Virus record (IMG/VR): IMGVR_UViG_3300034073_003276
DNA length: 64,000 nucleotides
Direction: 5' to 3' (one strand)
DNA from: a virus
Lineage: Duplodnaviria > Caudoviricetes
Both the position numbers and the translations under genes were made by a program. Below are positions 15,034-63,844 of the stretch, piece by piece. The notes below the pieces were generated by a model. That model made no database searches and was not told the origin of the DNA. It saw only the letters and a list, made by a program, of their open reading frames with translations. Numbering within the stretch: the first letter of the stretch is position 1; the number at the start of each line of letters is the position of its first letter.

Positions 15034-15074
15034 CTGTATAATCAGTTATACTTCTTCAATTTTTTTTATTTATA

Positions 15075-19237: not shown

Positions 19238-19322
19238 AAGAGACCTCCCTGTTTGTGCTTCTATGAGAGGCATGGGAGGGGCAGGACTTACACAAGGTTT
19301 GGACCCCTGTTGCCTATGAGAG
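19238..19322 (-). ncRNA. candidate structured leader/ncRNA upstream of tRNA-Arg(TCT)
   Basis: follows TTGACT-17-TATAAT (19324-19352); stems GGCA/TGCC, AGGGG/CCCCT, TTGTG/CACAA, CCTCCC/GGGAGG. Confidence 0.45.
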
Positions 19323-21214: not shown

Positions 21215-21453
21215 AACTAAATTTAACTAAACTCATCTTCATTGTTTGTTGCTCTATAGTTGGATTTGTTGGAATAAATTTTGTTACTTGTAATTTTATG
21301 GTGCCAGGCACAATCAATAGAGCAAATGCAAAGGGAGAATTACAAAACCCTCCTCCTTTAGATTGTAAAGAATCTGAAAGAAGAGGGTATGAAACTTTAT
21401 TAACAATTTTAACTACAGTAATTGCATTAAGAACTAAAGTAGAAGAAGACTAA
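21211..21453 (+). CDS. small two-segment membrane protein (holin/spanin candidate)
   Basis: start moved to MKLNLTKL (21211); two hydrophobic segments; next to lysins. Confidence 0.55.
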   Translation: MKLNLTKLIFIVCCSIVGFVGINFVTCNFMVPGTINRANAKGELQNPPPLDCKESERRGYETLLTILTTVIALRTKVEED

Positions 21454-22064
21454 GAAGACCAAAGTTTACCTTCTGCAATACGCCTTCTTTGCAGTCCTGC
21501 GGCAACTTTGGTGCCAGGATTATGATAAAGATAAAGAGCATCTGGAACTTTATCCCATTCTTTATTCTTCAATACCCTACTAATGGTATTAAAACCAGAA
21601 GAGTTGTAAAAGCGAGCACCAAGATTGTAAGCAAAAGATAATAGAGCGCCTCGTTGATTTTCATTCATTTCATCCCAGTGAGGAATATTTTGAAGTGGTG
21701 GTAGAAATTCTTTTCTCAACTGATAGTAAAGAAGGTCATCTGCTTCATCTTGAGTAATTATATTACCAATCATAAAACGAGTGCCATCTTTTCTACGAGT
21801 GCTTCCCCATCCAATTGTGATTGGAAGTCCACCAGTCAGAGGATCATAATATGCTTTTAGATGGCATCCTTCAAATTCCTTGATTAAATCTACACCTGGA
21901 ATTGGAAGACCTTCAAGAGTTGGTTCTATCTTTTGATTACGATACCTTCTAGCAAACTCATCAAGAATTTCTTTGTGGACTGATGCTTGTAGAAAATTCC
22001 AAGCATCATTTTGATGTGGCAAATCTTGATGATACTTTACAGCATCAATAAATTTAATACTCAT
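21450..22064 (-). CDS. lysozyme, GH24 endolysin
   Basis: LIKEFEG..LKAY.D....TIGWGST catalytic E-x8-D-x-T pattern; ALLSFAYNLG; GLQRRRIAE. Confidence 0.93.
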   Translation of the reverse strand: MSIKFIDAVKYHQDLPHQNDAWNFLQASVHKEILDEFARRYRNQKIEPTLEGLPIPGVDLIKEFEGCHLKAYYDPLTGGLPITIGWGSTRRKDGTRFMIGNIITQDEADDLLYYQLRKEFLPPLQNIPHWDEMNENQRGALLSFAYNLGARFYNSSGFNTISRVLKNKEWDKVPDALYLYHNPGTKVAAGLQRRRIAEGKLWSS

Positions 22065-22753
22065 GAAAACACTCTACCCCATCCAGACTTAGGACCATCT
22101 ACAGTCCATCTCTTTTCTAAGACAGACTTCTTATAAACAGCACCTTTACCATTATAAACAGACCCTGTGTATCCATCATTCAAACTTCCATAAGGGTCAT
22201 TAACAACATAATCTCCAGATGCTGTCTTACCAATCACTACAAGCATGTGCCCACCAGTAGGTGCAGATAAAGAACCCCTATGAAGAATCCCGATAATGAC
22301 AGGTTTCCCATTGGCAAGCTCCCTATCAAGATCAGCAAAAGAGAGATTGTAACTAAATCGTGAAGTAACACCATAAGACGATAAAACTTTCGTCTGGACG
22401 GCGTGATCAGTCGTATCACCAATTGAGAAAACTTTGCGGATGTAAGCATCATCGCCCTTTGGTCCCTGCAGTGTTCCTGGTTTTAAAAACTCAAGACACA
22501 TAGCACAGGCTGATGAATTACAGGTTCTTTGTGCGTCCCTATAATTATCCGTTTGTGGATAATAAGGAACATTGAGAATATCTGACTTTGGTGCTTCTAC
22601 TTTTGATCTATAAATTCTGACCCAATTAGCATCTTCCTCCATCAAGTCAGATGCTTTTGCTAGCAAATCCTTCTCAAGTTGCTCTACTGCTGCAACATGT
22701 TTTGGATTTTTATCATCATAATATTTGAAAAAATTATGGAGATCGATTTGCAT
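22061..22753 (-). CDS. C39-like peptidase (papain fold), probable cell-wall hydrolase
   Basis: VPYYPQTDN, CNSSACAM, GGHMLVVIG, VNDPYG. Confidence 0.85.
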   Translation of the reverse strand: MQIDLHNFFKYYDDKNPKHVAAVEQLEKDLLAKASDLMEEDANWVRIYRSKVEAPKSDILNVPYYPQTDNYRDAQRTCNSSACAMCLEFLKPGTLQGPKGDDAYIRKVFSIGDTTDHAVQTKVLSSYGVTSRFSYNLSFADLDRELANGKPVIIGILHRGSLSAPTGGHMLVVIGKTASGDYVVNDPYGSLNDGYTGSVYNGKGAVYKKSVLEKRWTVDGPKSGWGRVFS

Positions 22754-22754
22754 T

Positions 22755-22931
22755 TTATTCTCCTATGTATTCTAGTGAAAAAATATCATGATCTTCAATA
22801 TCAGGATTCAACCATTCACTGAATTCAGATTGAATTGCATGTGCTGATTCGATGTCATAATTAGACAACTCATGAATACGGTCAATTGCCCAATCATGAG
22901 ATTCCCGAAGTGTCTGTTCCAAAGTGACCAT
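22755..22931 (-). CDS. 58 aa acidic hypothetical protein (MVTLEQTLRESHDWAIDRIH...)
   Basis: translated by hand; its GGAG tail serves as SD for the next gene. Confidence 0.65.
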   Translation of the reverse strand: MVTLEQTLRESHDWAIDRIHELSNYDIESAHAIQSEFSEWLNPDIEDHDIFSLEYIGE

Positions 22932-23024: not shown

Positions 23025-23870
23025 ATGGAATGGAAATATAACGGAGAGGACTTTACCGAAGTTCCTAAAGAAATGGAGGGATTTGTTTATCTCATTACTA
23101 ATTTAACTAATGAAAGAAAATATGTTGGTAAAAAATCTTTTTGGATGAGGAGAAAAGATAAAAAAACAGGTAGAAGAAAAACAAAAGAAAGTGATTGGAG
23201 AAATTACTTTGGTTCTTGTGACGAATTGAATGAGGATGTAAAACTTATAGGAAAAGATAGTTTTTATAGAGAAATATTATATCTGTGTCCACATAAAAAA
23301 TCAATGTCTTACTATGAAACTTATGAACAATTTTTAAGAAATGTATTAATGAGTGATGAATACTATAATACGAATATTGAGGGAAGATTTTTTGTAAATG
23401 AAAAAAGTGGAATATATGAAGTTGTTATGAGAAATAATAAATTTAGGGAAAATAAAAGTATAGCAATGACTGGTGACAATAATCCAGCAAAAAGACCAGA
23501 GGTAAGACAAAAACTAAGTGAAATGTTTTCTGGTGAAGGAAATCCTATGTATGGTACTAAATTAACAGAAAAACATAAAGAAAAGTTGTTTAATTCTAGA
23601 AAAAGATCGGTAACTGATGGTAAAGATACATGGGATAGTGTAGTTTCTTTTATGAAAGAAAAAGATATTAGTTGGAATAGATATCTAATGTTAGTTGAAG
23701 AAGGTAAAATATTTTATGTTGATGGTGGTACTGTAAATATGGAATCGAAAATAAAACACAATTTACAAATGTGGGAATGTTTAGTTACTGGATATATATC
23801 TACAGCTGCTGGTCTTTCTATATACCAAAAAAATAGAAATATTGATATAAGTCTTAGAAATAAAATCTAA
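23025..23870 (+). CDS. GIY-YIG (Seg-like) endonuclease with NUMOD3-like repeats
   Basis: GFVYLITNLTNERKYVGKK; GDNNPAK and GEGNPMYG..LTEKHKEKL repeats; late promoter TAAATA at 22993. Confidence 0.85.
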   Translation: MEWKYNGEDFTEVPKEMEGFVYLITNLTNERKYVGKKSFWMRRKDKKTGRRKTKESDWRNYFGSCDELNEDVKLIGKDSFYREILYLCPHKKSMSYYETYEQFLRNVLMSDEYYNTNIEGRFFVNEKSGIYEVVMRNNKFRENKSIAMTGDNNPAKRPEVRQKLSEMFSGEGNPMYGTKLTEKHKEKLFNSRKRSVTDGKDTWDSVVSFMKEKDISWNRYLMLVEEGKIFYVDGGTVNMESKIKHNLQMWECLVTGYISTAAGLSIYQKNRNIDISLRNKI

Positions 23871-23921
23871 TAAATTTTATATATTATATTATAATATAGT
23901 ATCTTAGAGCTATTATTTATC

Positions 23922-23969
23922 CTTCAACCGGGACAAAGGTAGTCTAGCAATAAAAAAGCACCCTGTCAA
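23922..23969 (-). repeat. promoter-linked 25-nt element, copy 1 (TTGACA-17-TAGACTACCTTTGTCCCGGTTGAAG)
   Basis: identical 25-mer at 61476-61500 on the + strand with the same -35 spacing. Confidence 0.9.
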
Positions 23970-23980
23970 GAGGGTGCTTA
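23951..23980 (-). terminator. intrinsic terminator after the 514 aa gene
   Basis: AAGCACCCT-CTTGAC-AGGGTGCTT followed by T4. Confidence 0.8.
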
Positions 23981-24000: not shown

Positions 24001-25545
24001 TCAGAGACCCTTTGCGTGTCTGGTTTTACCACTCTCATCAGTCCAGGTTTCTCTTTCTCTTCTAGGAGTTACGTAACCTACACCAGGAACAGCACCAGTC
24101 TTTCCTTGGTCTCTTGCAGCATTTCTTGCTGCTGCTCTTTGCGCTGCTCTCTTACGATTCTTTTCGTAATTAGTCATTGCTTCATCAATCCACGCTGCAA
24201 ATGCTTCTTCAGAAAACTCACCCATTGCTTTTTGCTTACGGAGTTTCTTAGCACTCTTAGTTACACCACCAGGACCCTCTGAAGGATAATCATGATCTTG
24301 ACGAGTGCCTACACCGTGCTTAGAACCTGCTCTTGCTCTTTCTCTATCGTCAGAGGTCATACCCTTTCTTGGTGAATCATCTGGAGTTCTATTAGCAGGG
24401 TTGGTTCTGCTTAGCATCTTCTTGAGGAATGGTTTCCTCTTTGCAGTCATTTTGGTTCCTCTTGCTGCACTATATGCTTTTGGAGTAGCACCATAGGAAC
24501 CTTCTTCTTCATCAAGAAATTCTTCGACAATACTCTGTATCCACCCTTCACTCATATTTGCAATAATTTCACGAGCAGCCTCTTCAGTTTCTGCATAACC
24601 TTCAGAGATTAGGTGCTCAAGAACTTGCTCAAACATATCTTTGCCACCCTTCTTGGGCACTTTACCCTTTTGCTTCAGGGCGTCACGACCACCTTCAGCA
24701 CGTTCGGCAGAAGAAGCACCAGGACGGAAACGACCCATCATCAGTCGGCGCTCCTTATTGGTGGGAACTTCCTTATCCCTCTTCTCTTGCTCAGCATCAC
24801 GGCGAGCCTGCTCACGGGCAGCACCTTTGAAGTCAATACCTTCACAAATGTTAGCAATCATTTCAGCGTCCATTTCCATCATTACATAATGTGCCTCTTC
24901 TACGGTGTCTACGTGACCGTTATCGAAGAGATACTCAAGAACTACATCATAAGCATCATACTGCTCAAAGGCACTTCCAGGCTTCTTAGAACCCGTTGCT
25001 TTATTGACAGGTGTAGCAGGTTTTGGAGCTGGTGCAGATGCTTGTCTCTGCATAGATCTTCCAATCATTCCACGAATTTCTGCAGCAGATGATTGACTTT
25101 TAGATACTGCTGGTTGAGATGTAATTGGTTTTGATGTGGTTGATCCAGGAGCTGGTTTTGCTGCTGGTGCTGCAGGAGCCACTTTAGAAGCAGGCTTAGG
25201 TGCTGGTGCAGCGGGTTTAGTAGCAGGAGCAGCGGCAGCAGGCTTAGGTGCTGGTGCAGCAGGCTTAGGTGCTGGTGCAGCGGCAGCAGGCTTAGGTGCT
25301 GGTGCAGCGGCAGGTCTTTGTCTAGTGCCCGCTGCAGCACCTCTTCTGGTGCCAGCGGGTCTTTCAGCAGCTTTATATACAGTTGGATTGGATCCAGTAA
25401 CTCTTCCACCCTGAGCACTAGCCTCATCAATTTGCTCTACATCATCTTCAAAAATTTCTTCAACAACTTCTTGGTGTTGCGGAGCATAAACTGCCGCATA
25501 TGCTTCCATCAATGCTTTTGCATCACTTCCAGTAATTCTAGACAT
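24001..25545 (-). CDS. low-complexity late protein with Pro/Ala/Lys repeats and two LExL..G...T.E.A...M..M modules
   Basis: ORF composition; late promoter TATAAATA at 25571-25578. Confidence 0.85.
   Translation of the reverse strand: MSRITGSDAKALMEAYAAVYAPQHQEVVEEIFEDDVEQIDEASAQGGRVTGSNPTVYKAAERPAGTRRGAAAGTRQRPAAAPAPKPAAAAPAPKPAAPAPKPAAAAPATKPAAPAPKPASKVAPAAPAAKPAPGSTTSKPITSQPAVSKSQSSAAEIRGMIGRSMQRQASAPAPKPATPVNKATGSKKPGSAFEQYDAYDVVLEYLFDNGHVDTVEEAHYVMMEMDAEMIANICEGIDFKGAAREQARRDAEQEKRDKEVPTNKERRLMMGRFRPGASSAERAEGGRDALKQKGKVPKKGGKDMFEQVLEHLISEGYAETEEAAREIIANMSEGWIQSIVEEFLDEEEGSYGATPKAYSAARGTKMTAKRKPFLKKMLSRTNPANRTPDDSPRKGMTSDDRERARAGSKHGVGTRQDHDYPSEGPGGVTKSAKKLRKQKAMGEFSEEAFAAWIDEAMTNYEKNRKRAAQRAAARNAARDQGKTGAVPGVGYVTPRRERETWTDESGKTRHAKGL
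25190..25313 (-). repeat. coding tandem repeat (PAPKPAA[AA]) x4
   Basis: gcaggcttaggtgctggtgcagc unit repeated with 21/27 bp period. Confidence 0.9.
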
Positions 25546-25591: not shown

Positions 25592-25738
25592 TTAACTACC
25601 CTCCATCCATTCTTTCTTATAATCGTAATCTCCAAACATAAATTCATCAGATTCTGCTGCTTCTCGATAAGCATTCAGAATCTCTTCTTCACACCATTCA
25701 TCATAGTTGGAATCATCTTTAAGTATCTTGGGATTCAT
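25592..25738 (-). CDS. 48 aa acidic hypothetical protein (MNPKILKDDSNYDEWCEEE...)
   Basis: translated by hand. Confidence 0.6.
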   Translation of the reverse strand: MNPKILKDDSNYDEWCEEEILNAYREAAESDEFMFGDYDYKKEWMEGS

Positions 25739-26465
25739 TTTTTATAGTCCAACCGTTTCTTCTTGGTCCAGTTCTATTATATTTAATAGCAGCACACATA
25801 GTAGCATATGAAATATTATGCAACTTACAAAATTTTTTTAGTTCACCAGTAACAACATATTCTTTTCCTTCTGGAGATAAAAGTTTCCAAGTTTTTGCTG
25901 ATGGAGATGTAAATCCATTTGCATATCTTTCCTTTGCCTTTTGACTAATTTTTCTTTTCCTATCTTCACTACAAGGAACACCATAACTTGGATTGTTTTT
26001 TCCCGCCACTTTTTCACTTATTTTTCTTTTAGTTTCTTCAGTATGTTTTCTTACACCACCATAGTTTCTCCTTTCTTCTTTTGTCTTTAATCTTTTTTGA
26101 ATTTGTTCCTCCCACTTATCCCCATATATTTGTTGATATGTTCTTCCTTTTAATTTTGGAGGTCTAGAACTTTCACATATATTTGTTAATATACCATTTT
26201 CATCAATATCTCTTTTTCCGTATTTTTTGATTAGTTCCTCTTCATAATCATAAGCATCATTTTCTTCCTCAAAATATTGAACTATTTTAACTTCAGGTTC
26301 ATAACCTTCTTTTCTTATTTTTTTAATCTTATCAAACTTCTTAAAGTTATCCGATTTTGCCCTCGATTGTTCTGATAAATGAAAATAGACCCGATTACCT
26401 TTACCCTTTCCAACATAAAAAGGAAGATTAACTCTCGGGTCTATTAATTCGTAAACATAATACAT
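25719..26465 (-). CDS. GIY-YIG homing endonuclease (LEM-3-like) with NUMOD3
   Basis: YYVYELIDPRVNLPFYVGKG; KHTEETKRKISEKVAGKNNPSYG; late promoter at 26489-26496. Confidence 0.9.
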   Translation of the reverse strand: MYYVYELIDPRVNLPFYVGKGKGNRVYFHLSEQSRAKSDNFKKFDKIKKIRKEGYEPEVKIVQYFEEENDAYDYEEELIKKYGKRDIDENGILTNICESSRPPKLKGRTYQQIYGDKWEEQIQKRLKTKEERRNYGGVRKHTEETKRKISEKVAGKNNPSYGVPCSEDRKRKISQKAKERYANGFTSPSAKTWKLLSPEGKEYVVTGELKKFCKLHNISYATMCAAIKYNRTGPRRNGWTIKNESQDT

Positions 26466-60193: not shown

Positions 60194-60825
60194 TTTTGTT
60201 GTCTCCTACTATTTTCTTTTGCGGTTTTCATAAGATGCTCTTCGCGTGTAATAATTTGAAGATTGTTGGGATGATGCAACCCACCCTCAAATAAGGGAAT
60301 AATGTGATCTACATCATACTGCATACCAGTAGTAAAAGTCAAGTGTTGTGCTTGCTGATATATGTCCTGAATTTGACGAAGTTCTTCTTCAGTAATTTCT
60401 ATCGGTATTCCTTGTTTTAATCTAGCAAATCTTCTTCTTTGTTTTTCATAATTTACTGCTTTTCCTCTTTCACTTTTAGAATATTTTCTTTTAATTGAAT
60501 TTACTAACTCTCTATTATCCTCATAATATTTTTGTTTCTTTTCTTTTGTTCTATAAGAAGACATCAACTCTTTATTGTTAAGTTTTTCCAATCCCTTTGA
60601 TATAGCACAAGGGACACAGTTATAACTACTCACATATTTTTCATAACTACCACAATGTTTACAAGCAGTAGAACCGATATAAGTTTTTTTACCTTCCTCA
60701 ATTGCTTTCTCCCGAGCAGCACTTTTTTGAGTATACCCTTTTAATTTTGCCCTTTCTTTATTTTTCAATAGATTTTCCGCCATTATTTTTTTTCGTTCTT
60801 CTGGCGTGTATTTTGGTTTAGTCAT
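60190..60825 (-). CDS. HNH homing endonuclease with zinc finger
   Basis: CKHCG..CVPC; VDHIIPLFEGGLHHPNNLQII; late promoter at 60854-60861. Confidence 0.9.
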   Translation of the reverse strand: MTKPKYTPEERKKIMAENLLKNKERAKLKGYTQKSAAREKAIEEGKKTYIGSTACKHCGSYEKYVSSYNCVPCAISKGLEKLNNKELMSSYRTKEKKQKYYEDNRELVNSIKRKYSKSERGKAVNYEKQRRRFARLKQGIPIEITEEELRQIQDIYQQAQHLTFTTGMQYDVDHIIPLFEGGLHHPNNLQIITREEHLMKTAKENSRRQQK

Positions 60826-60882
60826 ATCTATTTCTAACTCCAAAGTATAAAATTATTTATAACATTTAGGAGTTAGAAAAGG

Positions 60883-61398
60883 TCACTTATTTCTATATTG
60901 AATAGCATCTTTAATACTGTTGTATTCACTACTATGCCCAGAAAGCAAGCTGTCGTCAACCATCATAACCTCATCAAACCCTGTGCGTTCGATAATCTTG
61001 GTCTTGATATCGAGTTGCTTCTTTTCCTTTTGAATTCTTCTCAAGAATGCGTAGTGAATAATTTGAGTAAAATATGCGAAAGGATTCTTTGACTTTTCAG
61101 GGTCAAAGTTATGAATATATTGAACGCAGTTTTCAATGCCATCAGAAATCATATCCTCACGAAACATATAATTCACAAAGTTTGGTTTATATGAAAGGTG
61201 AGTAGCAATCTTCAGAAAACATTCTCCAAGATAATTCGGAATGGGTGGTTTACCTTCCCAATGCTTGCCTCTATCTTCTTTAGTGGGGTTTCTATCGAAC
61301 TTCTCATTGAATGACTTTTCGACCTTGGATCGATACACAATCATTGCTTCTAGAAGTTCTTTGTTGTTTACATAGTGTTCTGTCTTTTTCTTAGGCAT
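60883..61398 (-). CDS. 55: late-transcription sigma factor (gp55)
   Basis: HYVNNKEL, KIATHLSYKPNF, DGIENC, NPFAYFTQI. Confidence 0.96.
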   Translation of the reverse strand: MPKKKTEHYVNNKELLEAMIVYRSKVEKSFNEKFDRNPTKEDRGKHWEGKPPIPNYLGECFLKIATHLSYKPNFVNYMFREDMISDGIENCVQYIHNFDPEKSKNPFAYFTQIIHYAFLRRIQKEKKQLDIKTKIIERTGFDEVMMVDDSLLSGHSSEYNSIKDAIQYRNK

Positions 61399-61430
61399 AG
61401 CATTGGACTTATATAATATAGGTTATGCTT

Positions 61431-61459
61431 ATTATACCATAACCTATGGGGCTTGACAA
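61431..61459 (-). promoter_or_regulatory. sigma70-type promoter for gp55
   Basis: TTGTCA-17-TATAAT; -35 overlaps the opposite-strand TTGACA. Confidence 0.7.
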
Positions 61460-61500
61460 GTTATAATATTGTGTGTAGACTACCTTTGTCCCGGTTGAAG
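61453..61500 (+). repeat. promoter-linked 25-nt element, copy 2
   Basis: TTGACA-17-TAGACTACCTTTGTCCCGGTTGAAG, identical to 23922-23946 on the - strand. Confidence 0.9.
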
Positions 61501-61508
61501 ATAAGGAT

Positions 61509-61916
61509 CTAGACTTCTTTAATACCTTTAAAGATTCTTTCAAGGCTCTTGCGAGCATCTTCAACTGAGGATAGATATCCCATCTTAGGAGAGGGTTTTA
61601 CTTGACCTGAAGGACTATAAACATCAATAGTATCATCATCTTGAATATAGTTGTTGTAAATATCAATTATTTTATTATCTTTAGTCTCAGTCATTGTAAT
61701 AATCTTATCAAGTTTTACAATAAAGAAATCATCATCAGACAATTCCATCCAAGGTTTAACTTTTAAATATGTTCCTTGTTGATTATTAAAAGACTTCATT
61801 GTCACTGGATTTTGAAGCACTAAGACAGGATCTCCATCATTATCATCAATTAAGACTAACGATAGAATCTCTTCACCTGATACTAATTTTATAATTGCGT
61901 AAAACTCTTCTCCCAT
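61509..61916 (-). CDS. Sm-like conserved hypothetical protein
   Basis: IIKLVSGEEIL, KPWM. Confidence 0.75.
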   Translation of the reverse strand: MGEEFYAIIKLVSGEEILSLVLIDDNDGDPVLVLQNPVTMKSFNNQQGTYLKVKPWMELSDDDFFIVKLDKIITMTETKDNKIIDIYNNYIQDDDTIDVYSPSGQVKPSPKMGYLSSVEDARKSLERIFKGIKEV

Positions 61917-63379
61917 TAGTTTTTAAAAGGTATGTTTACAATATCATAATTGAAGTTTTCTTCATTGTAGACTTTGATTCTTTCGATTAAGTGATTGAGT
62001 GTATAATTCTTTCTTGACTTATAACTGATATCATCGGCAATGTCATATAGAGTTGCCTTTGTCTTATTATTTCCTTTTCTTAAGACTCGTCCGATTGATT
62101 GGAGGTTTCTGATTCTTGATTTACTAGGGGAAGCAAAGATAACATTATGTAAATTTCTGATGTTAACACCAGTAGAAAAAGTACCGTAAGAAGCAACGAT
62201 GATTGCATTATTTTCTTTTTCAGTGATTTCTCTTACTTTTTCACGATTTTCGGTATCAACACCACCATGGACAAAGAAGACATGACGATCTTCATTGATA
62301 CTCTTATTTATTAAATCATATAAGGGTTGACCGTGACCTTCAACACGGGCAAAGAGAATCAAAGTGTTTCCTTTCAAATCAAGAGCAAGATTCTTAATAA
62401 ACTTATTTCTTTTCTCATGATTGATAATATACTGAACTTCATCTTCAAAAGTCTCAAAACGATTCGGTGGGTGTTTCAATAGAAGAATGTTGATGTCTAA
62501 TGTAGCAACATGACCTTTCTTCATTAACTCATCAGTTTTAATAATCTTATAAGAAGGACCGAATAATCCTTCTAAAACCCACTTATGAGTCTGACTTCCA
62601 TCCAGTGTTCCTGTAAATCCGAAACGATATTTACAATCAGAAAGTTTTGTCATTATAGATACTAATGACTTTGATTTAAACTGGTGTGCTTCATCTCCTA
62701 CGACCACATTAAATCTTGAAAAATATTGACGGGGGAGTTTGTAGATGGACTGCCAGGTAGTGATAATCACCTGAGAATCCGTTTCTCTTTCTTTCCCAGC
62801 GTAAATTTTGTGGCAGTATGAACCCACATCAAACCCATAATCTTCAAAATCTTTATACATCTGCTCTACAAGGGATGTCGTTGGGACAACTACGAGAATA
62901 TTTTGTCCTTTCTCAACGTAATATCTCACAATTGAGTATATCATCAATGACTTTCCAGAAGCAGTTGGAGATATCAACAACTTTCTATTATGTCTTAATG
63001 CGTCGTATACTCCCTCAACTTGGTAGTCGCGGGGAGCGTACTTGCAGATAGAATTCATATAATCTTTTACACCTTCCTTTGAGATGTGCTCATTTACCTC
63101 AAAAGGAAGACCATAATACTTATTGTTTCGAAACTCATAAGTGTATTCATGTTGCTCACAGAATCTTATGAGTTTATCTAATAGACCGACGTATATTTCT
63201 CTTGTATTAACGTTAAACAAATAAATGTAACCATCCCACCACTTATTCTTGTAGGCAGGTGCGAATTTAGCATTTGGAACTTCAAATTGAAATGCGTCTC
63301 TTAATTCATAATAGACGTGTGGTTCTGCCTCAACTTGAAGAAATACCTCATTCTTTTTTGAAATAATCAAATGTGACAT
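61916..63379 (-). CDS. uvsW: UvsW RNA-DNA/DNA-DNA helicase
   Basis: SPTASGKS, GDEAH, GFTGT, STGVNI, QSIGRVLR. Confidence 0.96.
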   Translation of the reverse strand: MSHLIISKKNEVFLQVEAEPHVYYELRDAFQFEVPNAKFAPAYKNKWWDGYIYLFNVNTREIYVGLLDKLIRFCEQHEYTYEFRNNKYYGLPFEVNEHISKEGVKDYMNSICKYAPRDYQVEGVYDALRHNRKLLISPTASGKSLMIYSIVRYYVEKGQNILVVVPTTSLVEQMYKDFEDYGFDVGSYCHKIYAGKERETDSQVIITTWQSIYKLPRQYFSRFNVVVGDEAHQFKSKSLVSIMTKLSDCKYRFGFTGTLDGSQTHKWVLEGLFGPSYKIIKTDELMKKGHVATLDINILLLKHPPNRFETFEDEVQYIINHEKRNKFIKNLALDLKGNTLILFARVEGHGQPLYDLINKSINEDRHVFFVHGGVDTENREKVREITEKENNAIIVASYGTFSTGVNIRNLHNVIFASPSKSRIRNLQSIGRVLRKGNNKTKATLYDIADDISYKSRKNYTLNHLIERIKVYNEENFNYDIVNIPFKN

Positions 63380-63412
63380 TCATAACGTATCAGTTATGAT
63401 TATTTATTTCTG

Positions 63413-63844
63413 TTAGTTAAACCCTGCTTGGAAACGGTTCCATTCAATTGCGTTCTTGATTTGGAATGTTCTATTGGAGACTGTTTTAATAATCTCCTCA
63501 AGAAACTTCAGCATGATATCATAGTATCTGATTTTGAGATCTATTTTATTCAGTCTCTCATCGGCGTCCATATGCCTCTGTAACGCCTCTTTGTCTCTAA
63601 CTTTATAAGGAAATGGTTCTTCAACATAAACCTCTGCTGGCGCCTTTCCTGTGTAGTAGTTGTATCTTTCTAATTTGACCCTACTATAAGTTTCTCTCGC
63701 CTTCTCTCTCAGAAGAGTGATTGTATTGTATATGGTATAATATTTGGAATGAAGTTGTGGAATTTTTAAAGATTCATCGTGTAAATTATCAGGGTCTATG
63801 ACAGAATCTCTCTGCCACATCTCCTGGATTTCATCAAGATTCAT
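63413..63844 (-). CDS. uvsY: recombination mediator UvsY
   Basis: IPQLHSKY, YYTGKA, RTFQIKNAIEW. Confidence 0.93.
   Translation of the reverse strand: MNLDEIQEMWQRDSVIDPDNLHDESLKIPQLHSKYYTIYNTITLLREKARETYSRVKLERYNYYTGKAPAEVYVEEPFPYKVRDKEALQRHMDADERLNKIDLKIRYYDIMLKFLEEIIKTVSNRTFQIKNAIEWNRFQAGFN

Follow-up and report, generated by a model that had tools for sequence, protein, structure and literature searches.

An exact 25-nt repeat in a T4-like cyanophage genome is part of a real, conserved, low-copy cis-element with a putative control function. The 25-mer would run from the -10 box (TAGACT) of a portable promoter through its discriminator and start site and take in the first ~13-20 transcribed bases. 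Host sigma-70-type RNA polymerase would read this module, and T4-like cyanophages would keep two or three at fixed loci. One copy lies beside the gene for the late sigma factor, gp55. On balance, we consider it somewhat more likely than not that the module is a portable host sigma-70 promoter that tunes gp55 and uvsW through competition and antisense transcription, with a start region that acts in promoter escape or as an operator.

Promoter Geometry of the Repeat

The window, by which we mean the whole 64,000-nt stretch analyzed, comes from a T4-like cyanophage and encodes 21 tRNAs; the nearest isolate is S-SKS1. The original prediction was of a 25-mer present twice in opposite orientation, and both positions matched exactly: 23922-23946 on the minus strand (copy 1) and 61476-61500 on the plus strand (copy 2), with 0 mismatches. 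No third copy with three or fewer mismatches was found in the window, and 100 shuffles gave 0 matches, so the chance expectation is zero. TTGACA precedes each copy by exactly 17 nt and the two spacers are unrelated, again as predicted. The resulting TTGACA-17-TAGACT arrangement is a near-consensus sigma-70 promoter at both copies. Eleven perfect TTGACA-N17-TANNNT sites occur in the window, 10 of them on the coding (minus) strand, and the TAGACT form of the -10 box is confined to the two 25-mer copies. The -10 boxes of the other nine sites are mostly TATAAT-like, and the 25-mer start region accompanies none of them (0/9).

Both promoters point at the 3' ends of convergent ORFs, as had been claimed. 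Copy 1 ends 51 nt from the stop of the ORF at 23025-23870 (+), and copy 2 ends 8 nt from the stop of that at 61509-61916 (-). No ORF in the window starts after either copy, and neither ARAGORN nor Rfam gave a tRNA or known-RNA match at either one. The claim that no sense gene adjoins the promoters held in the window; in S-SKS1 and other relatives the copy 1 promoter leads a sense SegE-like gene. Reading the module as a promoter is secure from its sequence, from which activity and start sites are predicted.

The gp55 Locus

Copy 2 is located between gp55 (60883-61398, minus strand) and a gene for an Sm_like protein (PF16243; 61509-61916, minus strand) and opposes both of these as well as the uvsW helicase gene (61916-63379, minus strand). 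Its TTGACA (61453-61458, plus strand) falls within the palindrome CTTGACAAG (61452-61460). The -10 box (61476-61481) is followed by the discriminator ACC and a conserved TTTGT, and spacing places the predicted start at G 61488 (+), such that the 25-mer covers the first 13 transcribed bases. Transcripts would run into the 3' end of the Sm_like gene and farther on into uvsW. No terminator-like site was found on the plus strand within 60800-63500, and copy 2 is itself without a terminator-like hairpin. The gp55 promoter, TTGTCA-N17-TATAAT, occupies 61431-61459 on the opposite (minus) strand. Its -35 hexamer (61454-61459) overlaps that of copy 2, and the two form divergent promoters with one -35 region.

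The gp55 loci in IMG/VR were sampled independently of the 25-mer, which gave 74 distinct upstream regions. Every one of them (74/74) carries TTGACA, a spacer of exactly 17 nt and variable sequence, TAGAMT, and ASS-TTTGT-(4-5 nt)-TTGAAG; conservation of TTGAAG is about 90%. The search of cyanophage genomes for the element and its -35 spacing that the original prediction had called for therefore found both conserved, and this conservation in relatives strongly supports the view of TAGACT as the -10 box with a conserved sequence after it. The module is also found at gp55 in the isolates Syn9, S-PM2, P-SSM2, S-SCSM1, S-SRM01, and S-SKS1. In 65 of the 74 distinct relatives, the -35 of the gp55 promoter and the reverse-complemented TTGACA lie at an offset of -1 base, and the spacer of that promoter ranges from 16 to 18. 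Copy 2 is the universal copy, antisense and without a coding role in all relatives. The idea of twin antisense promoters holds throughout for copy 2, and for copy 1 only where the GIY-YIG gene is inverted.

The product of 61509-61916 matches Pfam Sm_like (PF16243) with an E value of 1e-12 and, weakly, PDB 3by7. This is a core cyanomyovirus gene, annotated as 'methylamine utilization' in isolates. An RNA-binding role for the product would fit its position beside the universal antisense promoter.

Our literature search found no earlier description of the module, and a full-text search with parts of the 25-mer returned no relevant paper; a gp55 antisense promoter may have been reported before. 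Doron et al. reportedly mapped the start sites of Syn9 in 2016.

Distribution in Cyanophages

The exact 25-mer was absent from the collection of isolate phages searched and present in more than 119 IMG/VR contigs. Instances with enough flanking sequence (117) were sorted by locus: ~42 lie upstream of gp55, 27 between a ~500-aa ORF and the SegE-like gene, and ~46 upstream of a DEAD/ResIII helicase, with 2 unassigned. S-SKS1 has degenerate copies at exactly the same three loci. Genomes carry two or three copies (Syn9, 2; S-SKS1, 3), and this low number argues against a promoter class. A general early or middle promoter class was also rejected on a direct count: among 100 Syn9 sites that loosely resemble sigma-70 promoters (at most one mismatch in the -35, spacer 16-18), only 2 have the start region. 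The second Syn9 copy (NC_008296, 52,741-52,790, plus strand) is inside the small-ORF cluster gp87/gp88. It has the Syn9-specific start region of the gp55 copy, which indicates co-variation among the copies of one genome.

At the helicase locus, the module heads a sense transcription unit in relatives, and in one lineage an additional ORF separates it from the helicase. In the helicase-locus contigs L003-L121 and in S-SKS1 (169,757-169,880), the module and the start of the helicase gene are separated by ~75 nt, a hairpin, and an extended -10 element, TGCTATAAT, that is conserved. This locus thus has two tandem promoters with a hairpin between them. Gene inversion, truncation, or insertion is seen immediately 3' of the module at two loci.

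The SegE-like Locus

Copy 1 follows a 514-aa ORF (24001-25545, minus strand) that has no assigned function and whose synteny extends to S-SKS1, S-SRM01, and metagenomic relatives. The terminator hairpin of this ORF (23956-23979, minus strand; a 9-bp stem, then a T run) holds the copy 1 TTGACA (23964-23969, minus strand) in its loop. The -10 box is at 23941-23946 and the predicted start is G 23934 on the same strand. The G+C content is 11.7% over the 60 nt that follow the 25-mer. The first 27 nt of this stretch (23895-23921, minus strand) match the 5' leader of a sense SegE-like gene in the related contigs L051 and L067, and the likeness stops there. The remaining A/T-rich tract (23871-23894), at which the leader meets the 3'-flanking sequence of an inverted endonuclease gene, is unconserved in relatives. 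That gene (23025-23870, plus strand) encodes a 281-aa homing endonuclease with SegE_GIY-YIG and NUMOD3 domains and is convergent with copy 1.

In S-SKS1, L051, and L067, a SegE_GIY-YIG gene in the sense direction (149-153 aa) lies ~30 nt past the promoter; a 58-aa ORF, a Peptidase_C39_2 protein, and a lysozyme come next, in the order found in the window (21450-22931, minus strand), where the last of these is a phage lysozyme and all three would be reached from copy 1 by read-through. The endonuclease of the window, inverted and of full length, shares 48% identity with the sense form and 73% with a truncated 141-aa form that is also inverted; the latter occurs in 21 contigs and S-SRM01, with its stop 9 nt from the 25-mer. 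The copy 1 promoter is antisense only in lineages with the inverted GIY-YIG gene and is a sense promoter in S-SKS1 and others. It looks orphaned because a full-length homing endonuclease lies reversed, and the presence of a different endonuclease allele at copy 1 makes the A/T tract the junction that it left. Copy 1 would be a promoter of the SegE-like and lysis genes, now cut off by the inverted gene; to arrive at the genes for C39 peptidase and lysozyme, its transcripts would first have to cross the endonuclease in antisense. A second gene with GIY-YIG and NUMOD3 domains (25719-26465, minus strand) lies ~2 kb from that at 23025-23870 (+), and the pair flanks the 514-aa ORF.

The Start Region

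The predicted start is an invariant G located, from spacing, 7 nt past the -10 box; in Syn9 it falls near 123,698 (minus strand) and 52,776 (plus strand). The first 20 bases of the predicted RNA are 37% G and 8% C, and positions +7 to +19 are almost C-free. Two blocks are conserved, spaced by roughly one turn of the helix, and they take in the start region and the untranscribed discriminator alike. Position 3 of the -10 box is G or C, never T, in most copies.

RNA structure was assessed by several approaches. Covariance searches against Rfam gave no match at either copy, at related phage loci, or in host islands, and RNAalifold found no conserved fold in the gp55 intergenic region (energy ~0 on both strands). 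A three-pair ACC...GGT hairpin at the start site was considered and found weak: 72.8% of cells pair versus 66% in shuffles, 61 of 2000 shuffles reach 72.8%, sliding by one gives 61-65%, and exchange of C-G to G-C is seen at only one pair. At the helicase locus, a 5' stem between GUCC(C) and a downstream GGGAC is predicted together with a downstream hairpin; the 5' side is invariant in this set, so the predicted stem proves nothing. Inspection by eye revealed no convincing match to NtcA, LexA, or Pho boxes.

Copies in Host Islands

A pattern search over 301 Cyanobiaceae genomes, with the reversed pattern as control, located the module in eight genomes and the control in none. Seven of the eight matches also have a TTGAAG or ATAAAG block, which was absent from the search pattern. 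All six host loci fetched, one of them in a 2.4-Mb chromosome, place the module in a low-G+C island amid high-G+C host DNA. A tRNA-Ser gene is within a few kb in 4/6, and the adjacent ORF is a tyrosine integrase in all three loci checked. Islands L263 and L266 encode a DUF5906 primase/helicase-like protein. Four islands have an ORF of 204-221 aa ~340-570 nt downstream of the module (L263 8583-9197, L265 8811-9437, L266 10494-11120, L264 10269-10934), which has no Pfam or PHROG match and more than 100 unnamed metagenome relatives. The G126 island instead has a small serine recombinase and an Mrr/ResIII protein. This ~8-kb, low-G+C island (G126:C1; L261 5000-13800; host ~953-962 kb) is at tRNA-Ser(cga) and encodes a tyrosine integrase, the recombinase, and the 976-aa Mrr_cat_2/ResIII/HA protein, with the module mid-island. 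Searched strictly, a set with one genome for each prokaryote species returned only five matches, one of them in a Synechococcus single-cell genome whose locus (G001) is among those shown to lie in an island.

The module is the sole well-conserved block among these otherwise diverged islands, and its island versions are within the phage range of sequence variants. Beyond about +20, likeness between islands and phages is not above shuffled controls, and no flanking homology was found. The 208-aa island ORF and the ORFs beside the island copies gave no informative family, and the latter gave no recognizable DNA-binding domain. Mimicry of a host promoter was rejected, as the host copies at the loci fetched occur only in low-G+C integrated islands and none at core genes. 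The pattern suggests that islands and phages may be addressing the same machinery.

Low G+C content, a tRNA-Ser site, a tyrosine recombinase, and a primase/helicase-like gene or small serine recombinase are features that the host islands have in common with the tycheposons and PICI-like islands of marine picocyanobacteria (Hackl et al., 10.1101/2020.12.28.424599). We call the islands tycheposon-like on the basis of this architecture. The published text differs in that the words 'promoter' and 'intergenic' do not appear in it (10.1101/2020.12.28.424599). If the same machinery reads the ~50-bp module in the islands, their status as cyanomyovirus satellites becomes directly testable.

Candidate Functions

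The preferred reading, a promoter that tunes the late sigma factor, draws on direct observations of sequence, conservation, synteny, and geometry; from these, we infer promoter competition and a role in timing. Copy 2 would fire outward from gp55 and antisense into the Sm-like gene and uvsW. As its -35 and that of gp55 are on the same base pairs, the two promoters could presumably be bound by only one polymerase at a time. Through promoter competition and antisense transcription, copy 2 would delay or tune the late sigma factor and would silence uvsW read-through. To our knowledge, T4-like cyanophages lack the middle-mode regulators of T4. A strong predicted promoter in every cyanomyovirus examined, with a -35 in common with the gp55 promoter, is a candidate timing switch that can be mutated.

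The purine-rich, C-poor start region most likely sets escape and promoter strength, or would be an operator for some factor, or both. Near-consensus promoters are escape-limited and their output is greatly changed by the initial transcribed sequence (PMC5961368; PMC12464699). Escape would account for a conserved stretch that reaches about +20 but leaves its strictness unexplained: many sequences should be tolerable, and neither TTGAAG at ~90% nor G at position 3 of the -10 box is obviously explained by escape alone. The likeness of copies within Syn9 and within the window is a better fit to a trans-acting partner or gene conversion than to escape kinetics. A switch acting only locally at gp55 would also not predict that the module occurs in host islands. 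It is conceivable, though we think it doubtful, that the module is instead a phage-specific cis signal read in trans, as an operator or R-loop origin, and captured by tRNA-Ser islands. If so, islands of Synechococcus and Cyanobium would use it for induction, for replication, or to jam the late-sigma switch. This would be the first molecular link between tycheposon-like islands and a helper phage, and would offer a handle on the timing of late transcription in cyanomyoviruses, without MotA or AsiA.

An operator would place the binding site of a phage- or island-encoded regulator between the -10 box and about +20, where it would switch the two or three phage promoters together. Satellites of other phages sense or interfere with the phage program, and host islands would carry the site for such an end. 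The two conserved blocks about one helical turn apart, the avoidance of T at position 3 of the -10 box, the likeness of copies within one genome, and the survival of the module as the one well-conserved island block, within the range of phage variants, are all consistent with a bound protein. No candidate binding protein was found, however; the island neighbor ORFs have no recognizable DNA-binding domain, the ACC...GGT dyad is weak, and the whole case is deduced from conservation. We regard this as unlikely. The conserved 5' end might alternatively function in RNA, as a seed, a stabilizing stem, or a site for the Sm-like protein, and the universal copy does lie beside the Sm_like gene. At the helicase locus, the ~75 nt are followed by a hairpin that is a full terminator in some contigs, and the 5' GUCC(C) can pair with GGGAC downstream, a pairing retained in islands as GUUCC...GGAAC. 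Yet many helicase-locus hairpins have no U run, Rfam gives no match, and the RNAalifold analysis of both strands at gp55 recovered no conserved structure. Conservation also extends upstream of the predicted start, and the likeness of islands to phages past about +20 is no better than in shuffled controls. A small RNA or leader module is thus the least probable of the functions considered and is very unlikely.

The original prediction had offered an R-loop origin as one of its readings, and this rests on the A/T tract after copy 1. In a model of the T4 oriF/oriG type, the promoter transcript would hybridize downstream and prime leading-strand synthesis, UvsW (encoded beside the universal copy) would later remove the R-loop, and islands would be copied by the phage replisome. 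Features in keeping with this are the strong predicted promoter in two or three copies per genome, a universal copy that adjoins and aims at uvsW, the 11.7% G+C tract after copy 1, and the presence of the module in host integrative islands without flanking homology. The purine-rich, C-poor start would also be expected to give a stable RNA:DNA hybrid. Kreuzer and Alberts are said to have found that plasmids with T4 origins were replicated and packaged on infection. The tract did not survive comparison: it is lineage-specific, and over the 60 nt past the 25-mer, G+C content is 33.8% in 162 distinct instances versus 34.9% locally, with only three instances (copy 1 included) below 20%. An A/T-rich unwinding element is therefore not a conserved part of the module, and the R-loop origin gains no support from it. 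Moreover, ordinary sense transcription units begin with the module at two loci out of three, and islands L263 and L266 encode their own DUF5906 primase/helicase-like protein. GC skew is monotonic in the window, Syn9, and S-SKS1 and is uninformative. The purine-rich start, low copy number, and proximity to uvsW keep the idea of an origin alive at low odds, and we judge it improbable, more so than an operator. T4 oriF (uvsY) and oriG (gene 34) resemble the module in having a promoter without an obvious sense gene, few copies, and a positional link to UvsW; they differ in their defining A/T-rich unwinding element, some 50 bp downstream of the promoter, which is unconserved in the cyanophage module. 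T4 origins use MotA-dependent middle promoters and, as far as we know, are not conserved in sequence among relatives.

Comparison with Other Phage Promoters

Promoter-early stem-loops (PeSLs) of T4-like phages (Arbiol 2010, PMC2839356; Comeau 2014, PMC4122927) also combine a terminator-type stem-loop with a near-consensus sigma-70 promoter repeated in the genome. Gene replacements or insertions adjoin them, as seen here at copy 1 and at the helicase and SegE loci. In contrast to the module, with two or three copies at core loci, PeSLs are numerous and found in hyperplastic regions. A Shine-Dalgarno sequence and a start codon form their 3' end, whereas the module ends in a conserved ~20-nt start region with TTGAAG at its 3' end and has no ribosome binding site and ATG. 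The stem-loop is represented at copy 1 by the terminator hairpin that overlaps the -35, and copy 2, the universal antisense copy, has none; PeSLs also have no counterpart to this copy or to those in host islands. Cyanophages are unmentioned in PMC4122927.

Escape-limited promoters of the T5 N25 type (PMC12464699; PMC5961368) are similar in their near-consensus -35/17/-10 arrangement and in the importance of a purine-rich start. The difference is that many sequences work there, whereas the module sequence is kept across genera and host islands. CfrI, an antisense RNA opposite a homing endonuclease gene of S-PM2 (Millard 2010, cited in PMC5931967), resembles copy 1 as a case of a cyanomyovirus promoter antisense into such a gene. 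As far as the citing account goes, CfrI differs in being in the psbA region, no sequence in common with it was found, and copy 1 is antisense in certain lineages only.

Two further features of the window were recorded. Late-promoter-like octamers, TATAAATA, occur at 15067, 19132, 25571, 26489, 32995, 45504, 57032, and 60854 on the minus strand; all eight are on the coding strand, and this count does not exceed what chance would give (mean 5.3). At the edge of the tRNA cluster, an Rfam match to the abiF RNA (19243-19279, minus strand) scores 44.8 bits against a gathering score of 37. This family has been reported once in a cyanophage, S-CREM1 (PMC9964418).
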